Shown piece after piece: positions 25,082-42,675 of a stretch of 64,000 nucleotides of DNA. Within the stretch, counting starts at the first letter, position 1, and the number at the start of each line of letters is the position of its first letter. The notes beneath the pieces are model-generated. The model was given only the letters and a program-made list of their open reading frames with translations, made no database searches and was not told the origin of the DNA. A program made the position numbers and the translations under genes. Origin of the DNA: Macrostomum lignano (taxonomy: Eukaryota); the NCBI GenBank assembly GCA_002269645.1, contig NIVC01000142.1:310001-374000 (forward strand). Reading direction: 5' to 3'.

Positions 25082-28000
25082 TTAACACCACATCGGCCAC
25101 CAGAGAAACGGAGAGAACAGCAGAGCTCCGGCTGCGAATCCCAGAGCCGCGTCGCCGGCGCAGCACGATCGACAGCCGTAGCAGCTGTGCCGATGGCAGA
25201 ACGGCGGCCGGCCGTCCTCGTAGACGACCACAGTATTGCCGTCCGGGTGATAGATTACCCTTGCCGGCACGTTGCAGCCGTTCTCAACGTAGATTACCCG
25301 CTGCGACTGGTAGTGTCCCTGATTAGCCGGCTGAGGCCCGTAGCCGTACTGACTGTACGGAGGCGGCGGAGGCGGCTGCTGGTACTGCCTGTACTGCTGG
25401 TGCTGCTGCGGCAGCGGCGCCGATGCCGGTCTGGCCTGACGCGCCTCCTCAAGCGTCAGCAGCCAGGCGTCCGCATCGTCCGGATCGTCGGCGCAGAAGC
25501 GCCAAGTTTTGTCCGGCGTGGAGAAAGCGAATACAGCGGCGTAGGGCCGACCGTCCGGCGGGCTGACCCGGCAGGCCTCGCCGCGCATTGTGCCCTGCAC
25601 CTCCACAGGGATGGAGAGGGTCTCTTCGGCGATCAGCTTGTCTGGCGATTCGAAGTACTTTAAGTCGCCGTTGGCGTAGATCACCGTCCAGCATTTCTTC
25701 CAACGGTGAAGGATGTCGCCTGCCAATGAACGTAAAGCAGCGCTTTAAATGTTGCTTACAGCTGTCTACCGACTCCGACTCTCCTCAGTAGATCACAGCT
25801 GTCTACCGACTCTCCTCAGTAGATCACTGCTGTCTACCGACTCCCCTCAGTAGATCACTGCTGTCTACCGACTCCGACTCTCCTCAGTAGATCACTGCTG
25901 TCTACCGACTCCCCTCAGTAGATCACTGCTGTCTACAGTAGAAGGCATGAGGGGGCTTCTGGGACAAAATTTTTCACCTCCTCCATAATCCCAATAAATC
26001 CATCCATATTATCCCTGACAGAATCAGAAAAAAGGGGGGTCGCACCTGCTCCAAAAACTTCGTCCATAATCCACCTAAATCCATCCATATTATCCCTGAC
26101 AGAATCAGAAAAAAGGGGGGTCGCACTCGCTCACAAAACATCCTCCACAATCCTATTAAATCCATCCATATTATCCCTGACAGAATCAGAGCATTATCCC
26201 TGACAGAATCAGAGCATAACAGTAGGACACCTGTTATGCTCACTGACACTGACATAATCCACTGACATCCACCCATAGCATCTTCGAAACAATCAGAAAA
26301 TAATCTGCATTCTTCTCCCCACATTCAATCCGCAACGTGAAACCAGATCCCTAAAACTTTAAATCCCCTAACCCAGGGTCCTTACCCATTGAAAAAAAAA
26401 TAAATAATTTTATTATTCATTAGTAAGAATTATATATATTTATTAACGGTTGCACAACTGATAGGATATGTATTAACTATTACAAGATTATCAAAAATGG
26501 TAGAAAAAACAGACACTATGTAGGATCTGCGTTAGAATTCTTCAACAACATACAGAGCCAGCCTAGCGTTCCTTTGAGCCAGCAGCTAGATTCTCTAACG
26601 CCGTTAGAATTTTCTATGTGAAAATTTGGTGTGCCCAAGCTTATCATGCGGGAAGCTTTTCACATAGAAAATTCTAACGGCGTTAGAAAATTTCTACCCC
26701 CCTCTATTTAACCATACAGAGCCAGCCTAGCGTTCCTTTGAGCCAGCAGCTAGATTCTCTAACGCGTTAGAATTTTCTATGTGAAAATTTGGTGTGCCCA
26801 AGCTTATCTTGCGGGAAACTTTTCACATAGAAATTTCTAACAGCGTTAGAATTTCAAACCCACCGACTGAGTTGCACACAGTACTGAGAAAATTGCTACC
26901 CTCCTCTACTTAACCAATCGGCCGTCTCCAGTTGTTGAATCTTCTCTTTGAAATTCTAACGCGTTAGAAAAATTCTAAATGAACTGAATTTAAAAATTAC
27001 ACAACTTTCCACGCAGGATCACTGGCCAAAATTTCTTCTAGAAACTTCATCTTAGAGTTTAGTTCCCTAATTGGCATTGACACCTGTCTCAAGCCTGGGT
27101 AGGTAACAGACAGTTTGTACAGACGAATGTACAAATAGCCAGTTGATTCCTGGATGTTTACATTTTTACACAAATGGGCGAACCGCACTTTAACATCTTG
27201 TCCAAAGTTCTCGGTGCGATAAGTTTTTAGCAGCCGCCCAACTTCGAGAATCCAATGTAGACCTCCAATTTGAGTCTTCTTGTATTTTGCTAGAGCCGCC
27301 TTCACCCTAGTGATGATGTTCTGCTCGCCAGATGGAAGCTGGTGATCAACAGCGTCCATCAGCTGATCAGCTAGTGTTACGCGGGATGCGTACAACTTCT
27401 CCCTGAATATCTGCAGATCCGCCATCTTCTTCTGCAGAGCCGCCGCCTTCTTCTCTTCGCTACTCACATTTTGCGCTTCATTCGCTGCGGCGATATCATC
27501 AGGGGCCATGGCGAAAAACTCGATTGGTAGGTCGCCAGTTTCTAGACCGAAAAAGGTGGTTAGTTCCTCTCTTCTTCTTGCTTGTAGATGTGACGGAATA
27601 TCCTGTAAAACTCTTTGTAGCATGGCACAAAGGCCTTGCTTATCTGTCAAATGAAGATTCCACTCGACTTCCATTTTCTAAATCTTCTTGTCTTCTAATC
27701 TTCTAGTTTGGCGGACAATTTCTTAGATCACTTTCAGCGTGCTTAAGTTCCTGCAGTCGTCGTTTCTCAGTCGCAGTTGATGGCATATGCGGGGAGAATC
27801 AACCCGAGTGTTTCTGCATTTGCTTAAATACAGCTATACAGCTAGAAAATTCCAGAAAATTCTTAGACTGTACAATCTTGGAGTCAAGCAGGGAAAAAAT
27901 AATCGATATAGCTCAGTGAACGATAGAACATGAGGCGTGTGAATGTGAGGGTGAGCGATCGATTCCCTCCACCCGCTTGAAGTCCCCATACATTTCCTTG

Positions 28001-42675: not shown

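Follow-up and report, generated by a model that had tools for sequence, protein, structure and literature searches.

A recently inserted Maverick-Polinton provirus in the flatworm Macrostomum lignano, member of a large family of mosaic copies that may still form particles

The stretch of Macrostomum lignano DNA considered here (64,000 nucleotides, positions 310,001 to 374,000 of the forward strand of contig NIVC01000142.1 in GenBank assembly GCA_002269645.1; hereafter the window) contains a recently inserted provirus of the Maverick-Polinton class. The reading that best accommodates the evidence, to which we give a probability of a little over 60%, is that this provirus is a recent copy of a large and young family whose members replicate extrachromosomally as linear DNA, recombine with one another, pass through a particle stage and re-integrate. 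A single provirus of this kind is ordinary, and the value of the observation lies at the level of the family and in its tractable host. As a model animal M. lignano is transparent as well as genetically tractable, and a young, numerous family with empty as well as filled loci and many open capsid genes would make the virion question observable in a small cultured animal.

Assignment to the Maverick-Polinton class is secure. The element combines a PF03175 polymerase, a retrovirus-like (rve) DDE integrase, terminal inverted repeats (TIRs) within a target-site duplication (TSD), a double jelly-roll major capsid protein (MCP), a single jelly-roll penton, an A32-like ATPase (Walker A at residues 34-41, Walker B at 151-156) and an adenain-type protease (Table 1). 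Profile matches together with two predicted folds bear out the integrase, DNA polymerase B of the protein-primed type (pPolB), adenain, ATPase, MCP, penton and phospholipase A2 (PLA2) genes that a first-pass annotation had named, and with the MCP and penton folds its identification of a capsid-encoding Polinton. The MCP profile match (DJR-like PF21738, E 6e-5) falls below cut-off; a structure model of the protein (53 sequences, pLDDT 89.8) matches the major capsid proteins of Sputnik (E 5e-19, TM 0.64) and PBCV-1, and in a search of viral folds the adintovirus and MELD entries are only 9-11% identical to it. The penton model (14 sequences, pLDDT 73.9) matches the pentons of mavirus (E 6e-11; Z 12.8, rmsd 6.6, 239 aligned), Sputnik and adenovirus, whereas its sequence, searched against the PDB, gave no match. 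PLA2 is predicted to be an entry protein, and a PF05829 match to adenovirus protein X lies on a separate gene, about 150 aa long in other copies and broken here near 30.2 and 30.4 kb. The pPolB region is read in this copy as four frames (30650-31222, 31006-33033, 32940-33242 and 33083-34492), broken near 31.05, 32.95 and 33.1 kb; it matches DNA_pol_B_2 (PF03175, E 1e-6, 28.1 bits against a cut-off of 25.8) and carries an insert that matches Endonuclease_7 below cut-off (E 4e-4), an HNH-type insert common to 84 of 120 listed relatives. At the N-terminus of pPolB no OTU profile match was found; Cys and His motifs are visible by eye in the region where an OTU-like domain is expected, and may be those of a vOTU. 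A terminal protein encoded by a separate gene is unsupported, since in 10 of 16 copies the N-terminal frame is continuous with the segment that follows.

The insertion is recent. The provirus starts with AGTAG and ends with CTACT, and these termini, the 469-bp TIRs and the 6-bp TSD are all present in the sequence as the first-pass annotation had described them. The left TIR is likely to serve as replication origin and integrase-binding end. The provirus lies in a 31-bp host minisatellite, on which the first-pass annotation is silent, and a PH-domain exon is 190 bp away. The flanks of the provirus are found at two further places in the assembly (98-99% and 93-95% identical), at both of which the minisatellite is uninterrupted and no element terminus occurs. 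The insertion, present at one of three homologous loci, therefore postdates their split, a better test of the recency first proposed from TIR identity. The TIRs themselves, which differ by three mismatches, all within 7 bp, and two single-base gaps, were rejected as a clock, the mismatches being clustered and both states being present in other copies.

Near-identical copies are abundant in the assembly, as the first-pass annotation had suggested checking. A 26-nt terminus has 189 exact matches as against none for a reversed control, a number well above any chance expectation, and a first look returned 340 MCP, 326 pPolB and 295 integrase candidates, figures that are not copy numbers, homologous loci having been counted separately. 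Forty scored candidates for each of these three genes are 95-100% identical, and when 98 protein matches to the MCP were scored, 94 proved to have an open frame over the full length, at 98-100% identity. Twenty candidate two-ended copies were taken from the first 100 listed termini, a sample biased toward copies with this terminus; 19 of them, 12.5-19.0 kb long, were kept, and the C1604 region was left out because its two termini are not an inward-facing pair. All 19 occupy different sites, with a TSD that is exact in 15, has one mismatch in two and differs in two. There is no consensus among 17 TSDs, so that a target-site preference was rejected and the minisatellite target is peculiar to the copy in the window. 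Some copies lie inside or directly against others (contig C2829 near 83152, contig C4149 near 28280), and a copy on contig C217 has an insertion of about 8 kb within pPolB.

Selection was gauged from simple counts against the commonest codon of each column in up to 20 related copies, with no branch model. For variants shared by at least two copies omega is about 0.05 in MCP, 0.10 in penton, 0.04 in ATPase, 0.06 in protease, 0.11 in PLA2 and 0.09 in integrase, 0.05-0.26 across the pPolB segments and 0.07-0.17 in four accessory open reading frames (ORFs); for private variants it is 0.08-0.49. Only seven nonsense changes occur across 13 gene segments, none of them in pPolB. On these counts all the genes, capsid genes included, are under purifying selection.

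The copies are also mosaic. Among the 16 that hold all eight test regions, the mean difference is 1.4-2.1% in pPolB and 10-13% in the capsid genes, and MCP and polymerase distances are barely correlated (rho 0.16-0.37). Four-gamete incompatibility over 1,010 sites is 0.07, 0.09, 0.24, 0.68, 0.82 and 0.59 in successive distance bins from below 100 bp to 6-13 kb, climbing from 0.07 at less than 100 bp to 0.68-0.82 at 1-6 kb. Five of the 16 copies have a second type of MCP, 84% identical in protein, accompanied by a second type of penton, 80% identical, on polymerases at most 3% apart, and one of these copies carries the left arm of the copy in the window at 98%. It is likely that copies swap gene blocks, namely the capsid type, the ATPase block and the left-arm cassette, on a near-uniform polymerase. 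The family has in addition an 11.3-kb fold-back derivative (C1652:28604-39932 and C276:289398-300645) that holds the right arm twice, head to head, in arms of 4.7 kb that are 99.6-99.9% identical; it has neither pPolB nor integrase and is bounded by an exact 6-bp TSD. The two contigs have the same flanks and TSD and represent one locus assembled twice, and an amplified fold-back subfamily was accordingly rejected. The derivative is likely to be a template-switch product integrated in trans. Adenoviruses produce fold-back defective genomes. Distance-dependent mosaicism and an integrated fold-back would be direct genomic traces of the linear strand-displacement replication proposed for these elements, and the literature listings consulted, which do not extend to Repbase, subscription journals or bioRxiv supplements, describe neither this family nor a Polinton of fold-back form.

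Among the steps of the mechanism that we favour, priming, packaging, maturation, entry and insertion are taken from established knowledge of the Polinton family (Krupovic 2024; Starrett 2021, PMC8502044), whereas recombination between copies, a particle stage and complementation in trans are inferred for this family. Family members would replicate, as is likely, in the form of extrachromosomal linear DNA, with pPolB priming at the TIRs through its terminal-protein domain and copying by strand displacement, in keeping with the terminal-protein priming, vOTU processing and strand displacement described for pPolB (PMC11161782). Copies replicating together would recombine, template switches shuffling the capsid type, the ATPase block and the left-arm cassette. 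The A32 ATPase would package DNA into a capsid of MCP and penton, adenain would mature the core proteins and PLA2 would aid entry, PLA2 and protein-X-like products being described as entry and core proteins (PMC8502044). The rve integrase would then insert the DNA with a 6-bp duplication, probably after passage through a virus particle, and defective genomes such as the fold-back could be integrated in trans by complementation. Particle formation is supported indirectly, because the virion genes are under purifying selection and many MCP frames are open, and it is plausible that the family may still form particles.

Two other accounts of the same constraint and mosaicism have to be weighed. 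One is repeated recent invasion of the germline by exogenous viruses in circulation, in which case the proviruses are passive and selection and mosaicism arose in the free virus before integration. The purification of private variants as well as shared ones, by which most differences would predate insertion, fits such an invasion, as do the coexistence of several left-arm and two capsid types and the finding, in public collections, of short unnamed contigs that encode relatives of MCP and penton with 56-78% identity. The high copy number, the many near-identical copies and the nested copies fit amplification within the host lineage instead, as do the integrated fold-back and one left-arm haplotype present at two sites (99.5% identical). 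Invasion from outside, which we regard as unlikely, would still imply virions, and departs from our preferred account only on the reactivation of proviruses. The other account is a purely intracellular, self-synthesising transposon that spreads in germ cells without particles, its capsid genes being intact only through recency. In its favour, although infectious virions are proposed for the class, none has been observed for Maverick-Polintons according to a 2026 preprint (10.64898/2026.06.19.733378), and the integration in trans of a derivative without pPolB and integrase indicates that some genes are dispensable in cis. The contrary evidence is that virion genes are constrained as strongly as replication genes, that 94 of 98 scored MCP frames are open, and that both capsid types, whose proteins differ by 16%, are kept open; a particle-free transposon seems distinctly unlikely.

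Several observations weigh against the reading of an active family that recombines, forms particles and re-integrates. A full-length open pPolB is found in none of 20 two-ended copies and in none of 29 further pPolB regions (32 fetched, three incomplete), and one pPolB break is common to 11 of the 20 and 14 of the 29; its existence in real DNA is possible and compatible with the read contigs. Homopolymer runs contain hardly more of the single-base gaps than expected (0.26 versus 0.20), which leaves a homopolymer origin of the indels a weak proposition. Omega was derived from copies that are not independent, and the selection could date from an earlier free-virus phase. The mosaics could in part be assembly chimeras, and local mis-polishing is possible; wholesale chimerism is argued against because TSDs match and because the same mosaic was assembled twice at one locus. 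The particle stage, free ends and transcription are predictions in this case, and a pattern-based search able to recover close relatives found no relative in viral or metagenome contigs. Some data on expression and coverage were set aside, as they neither support nor refute expression. Of 24 listed runs, all under one organism code, none is on record as RNA. Contigs across the element from three runs guessed to be RNA lack strand and level and may be DNA; better coverage of the left arm in two of the guessed-RNA runs than in a DNA run is too weak to use, and so is the presence of host gene models for the 225-aa left-arm gene when nine other ORFs have no letter-for-letter match in the collection.

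How the frame breaks are to be read bears directly on whether the element is complete, as the first-pass annotation had it. Both ends are in place and the integrase, PLA2, protease, ATPase, MCP and penton genes are open, but complete coding capacity is not confirmed: pPolB is split among four frames, and breaks affect three or four accessory genes, including the protein-X-like one and those of about 270 aa and 339 aa. Private frame-shifting indels number 212 and are mostly single-base losses, about 100 of them in the two main pPolB segments as against no nonsense change there in 20 copies. They become denser as the divergence between copies falls (rho -0.82, seven regions, p 0.02), and it is in such similar regions that short reads would map ambiguously. 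The 11 copies that share the common pPolB break still have an omega of 0.18 (p 4e-19 versus neutrality). At most of the breaks in this copy, contigs built from the short reads of four studies have a different length. Across pPolB, such contigs 1.1-1.7 kb long have 0-1 gaps relative to this copy where assembled copies have 6-20, although they represent what most of the family carries and are no guarantee for a single locus. Because indels outnumber stops, their density tracks similarity, break-sharing copies remain constrained and read contigs differ, it is likely but unproven that most of the frame breaks, those of this copy included, are errors of sequencing, assembly or polishing. A dead or dying family of polymerase-defective remnants, left by a burst that a few unseen master copies drove, would explain the lack of a full open pPolB in all 49 copies, the single break in about half of them and the weak homopolymer enrichment, and is nonetheless very unlikely in view of the absence of nonsense changes amid so many indels, the selection persisting in break-sharing copies and the nearly gap-free read contigs.

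A more ambitious proposal builds on the preferred reading and is put forward tentatively, as something we would sooner doubt than assert. The laboratory flatworm may carry a live, freely recombining Maverick-Polinton population, with hundreds of proviruses, a left-arm gene that can be exchanged and a capsid of either of two interchangeable types, that reactivates, makes particles, produces fold-back defective genomes and inserts into the germline. If so, it would be the first system for catching animal Polinton virions.

Polintons, cargo arms and module swaps are already known, and the element adds another member. With Maverick-Polintons (Polintoviricetes; PMC4028283; 10.64898/2026.06.19.733378) it shares a length of 15-20 kb, long TIRs, a 6-bp TSD, pPolB, rve integrase, MCP, penton, A32 ATPase and cysteine protease, phospholipase being common in group 2; there is no difference in kind. 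The MCP has no named close relative: its best sequence match, at 78%, is to unnamed short contigs, and the next ones fall to 44% and to about 30%. For the pPolB palm segment 526 relatives were found, with at most 46% identity to the 120 listed; the named ones, from Elysia, Stylophora and Macrosteles, reach 40-42%, and in a tree of mostly unnamed proteins the element stands on a long branch next to three unnamed proteins with unusable support. The PF03175-type PolB, adenain, FtsK/A32 ATPase, hexon, penton, PLA2 and protein-X-like membrane-active genes are shared with alpha-class adintoviruses (PMC8502044; Buck 2024, 10.1101/2024.03.25.586562). The sources describe for adintoviruses an OTU-like domain at the N-terminus of PolB, a C-terminal chromodomain in the integrase, a hexon that BLASTP recognises reciprocally with the reference adintoviruses and, in the alpha class, PLA2X, a PLA2 fused to a protein-X-like tail. 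Here the PLA2 and protein-X matches lie on separate genes, and the open 341-aa integrase gave no Chromo match at E up to 0.1 in a profile scan. For want of that chromodomain the adintovirus label of the first-pass annotation, in its strict published sense, is not borne out, although the 2026 preprint treats the two names as synonyms.

Nematode Mavericks or Polintons (Widen 2022, 10.1101/2022.07.12.499685; Jeong 2023, PMC10748475) likewise have a variable cargo of 2-5 kb between left TIR and integrase, exchange modules among co-resident elements and in some cases have an HNH-type insert in pPolB. The present element differs in having no fusogen-sized ORF and in left-arm genes that are intronless, homologous and helical rather than host-derived cargo; C. 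briggsae swaps pPolB and this family, conversely, varies the capsid block on a uniform polymerase. In vertebrate Mavericks purifying selection on virion genes has similarly been taken as evidence of particles, and these too form multi-copy families (Barreat and Katzourakis 2021, PMC8097293), as do coral polintoviruses, whose core genes are expressed in coral (PMC11131425). Orthopolintovirales insertions in Rhabditophora are reported in a 2025-26 preprint, and the supplement of PMC8502044 does not describe this family. Jeong 2023 (PMC10748475) lists 748 integrase-linked pPolBs in eight of 73 flatworm genomes, the flatworm rows all being pPolB1. The first-pass suggestion of an uncharacterised lineage holds in that no named near-identical protein was found and fails in that flatworm Polintons, probably those of this species among them, had already been catalogued in bulk. 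Two accession strings in that catalogue, which we take to be M. lignano assemblies, account for 78 and 175 rows, a match of names and not of sequences, and the family has probably been counted there, though undescribed.

Table 1. Features of the provirus and its insertion site (window coordinates; aa, amino acids)
Feature	Position	Strand	Remarks
Host 31-bp minisatellite, left part (insertion target)	25775..25936	.	uninterrupted at two empty loci
TSD, left copy, 6 bp	25931..25936	+	GTCTAC
Whole Maverick-Polinton provirus	25937..42034	.	16,098 bp; missing from two homologous loci
Left TIR, 469 bp	25937..26405	+	contains 81-bp unit, 2.6 copies
Variable left-arm cassette	26406..28500	.	0.3-4.9 kb, mostly unrelated between copies
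225-aa accessory gene	26997..27674	-	no known family
Parvovirus-type PLA2, 166 aa, open	28502..29002	-	PF08398 E 6e-14; YxCGP loop, HD dyad
Retrovirus-like integrase, 341 aa, open	29033..30058	+	rve PF00665 E 7e-9; D72/D131/E166
Adenovirus protein-X-like core gene, ends approximate	30075..30537	+	PF05829 E 2e-7; frame broken here
pPolB region with Endonuclease VII/HNH-type insert	30650..34492	+	
Adenain-type maturation protease, 133 aa, open	34526..34927	+	PF00770 E 2e-4, over cut-off; H51/D69/Q99/C106
230-aa ORF, two hydrophobic segments	34894..35586	-	weak two-TM profile matches only
Accessory gene in pieces (79- and 90-aa ORFs)	35695..36436	-	about 270 aa in other copies
A32-like packaging ATPase, 266 aa, open	36453..37253	-	Pox_A32 PF04665 E 4e-6, over cut-off
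21-bp tandem repeat, 8 copies, intergenic	37308..37475	.	
128-aa ORF	37518..37904	-	three glycine-rich putative protease sites
339-aa ORF, no family	38085..39104	-	393-415 aa in most other copies
Double jelly-roll MCP, 428 aa, open	39135..40421	+	
Penton (minor capsid protein), 287 aa, open	40447..41310	+	structure model
79-aa conserved ORF, no family	41315..41554	-	under purifying selection
Right TIR	41566..42034	-	
TSD, right copy, 6 bp	42035..42040	+	GTCTAC
Host 31-bp minisatellite, right part	42035..42527	.	

The accessory genes are fewer than the roughly seven ORFs first annotated, a count that includes fragments of a single gene, that of about 270 aa, which is broken in this copy near 36.0 and 36.2 kb. 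The 339-aa ORF is broken near 38.1 kb, close to its end, and the 128-aa ORF presumably resembles adenovirus core or lytic proteins of the pVI type. In the left arm a 163-bp duplication and short inverted repeats occupy 26549-26983, and the 225-aa gene beside them has 24 matches in the assembly at 98-100% as well as divergent counterparts in other copies, about 20-36% identical. Across copies the left arms encode a protein of 225-303 aa that matches no known family and exists in four or more divergent versions. The cluster of the 225-aa protein includes four named M. lignano proteins, and no credible family was found for it in Pfam, PHROGs or Atlas. In a copy on contig C1525 (local 2540-3214) the 225-aa gene stands at the right end, where it displaces part of the usual right arm. 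The left arm of a copy on contig C819 (local 1141-2196) has a 352-aa ORF with a weak match to the QRICH1 domain (E 1e-4), which may be a captured gene or a nested element and which we take to resemble the Crypton-type derivatives of tyrosine recombinases.

The remainder of the window is host sequence and other repeats. A rhomboid protease gene (9561-10172, minus strand) and PTHB1/BBS9 exons (14479-21881, plus strand) precede the PH-domain exon (25082-25744, minus strand) that stops 190 bp short of the provirus. A host segment is duplicated at 273-3240 and 5523-7557, with a spacing of 4.2-5.3 kb and 90-99% identity, and contains secreted-looking ORFs of no Pfam family. To the right of the provirus a 4.8-kb AT-rich element (43074-47873), which lacks any ORF of 150 aa and has inverted ends of about 210 bp with 95% complementarity, is likely to be a non-autonomous DNA transposon. 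Inside it lies an 843-bp insert (43995-44837), which we take to be hAT-like and whose short inverted ends and 8-bp duplication were seen by eye, and from 48000 to 64000 unrelated simple satellites and minisatellites with periods of 4-46 are densely clustered.
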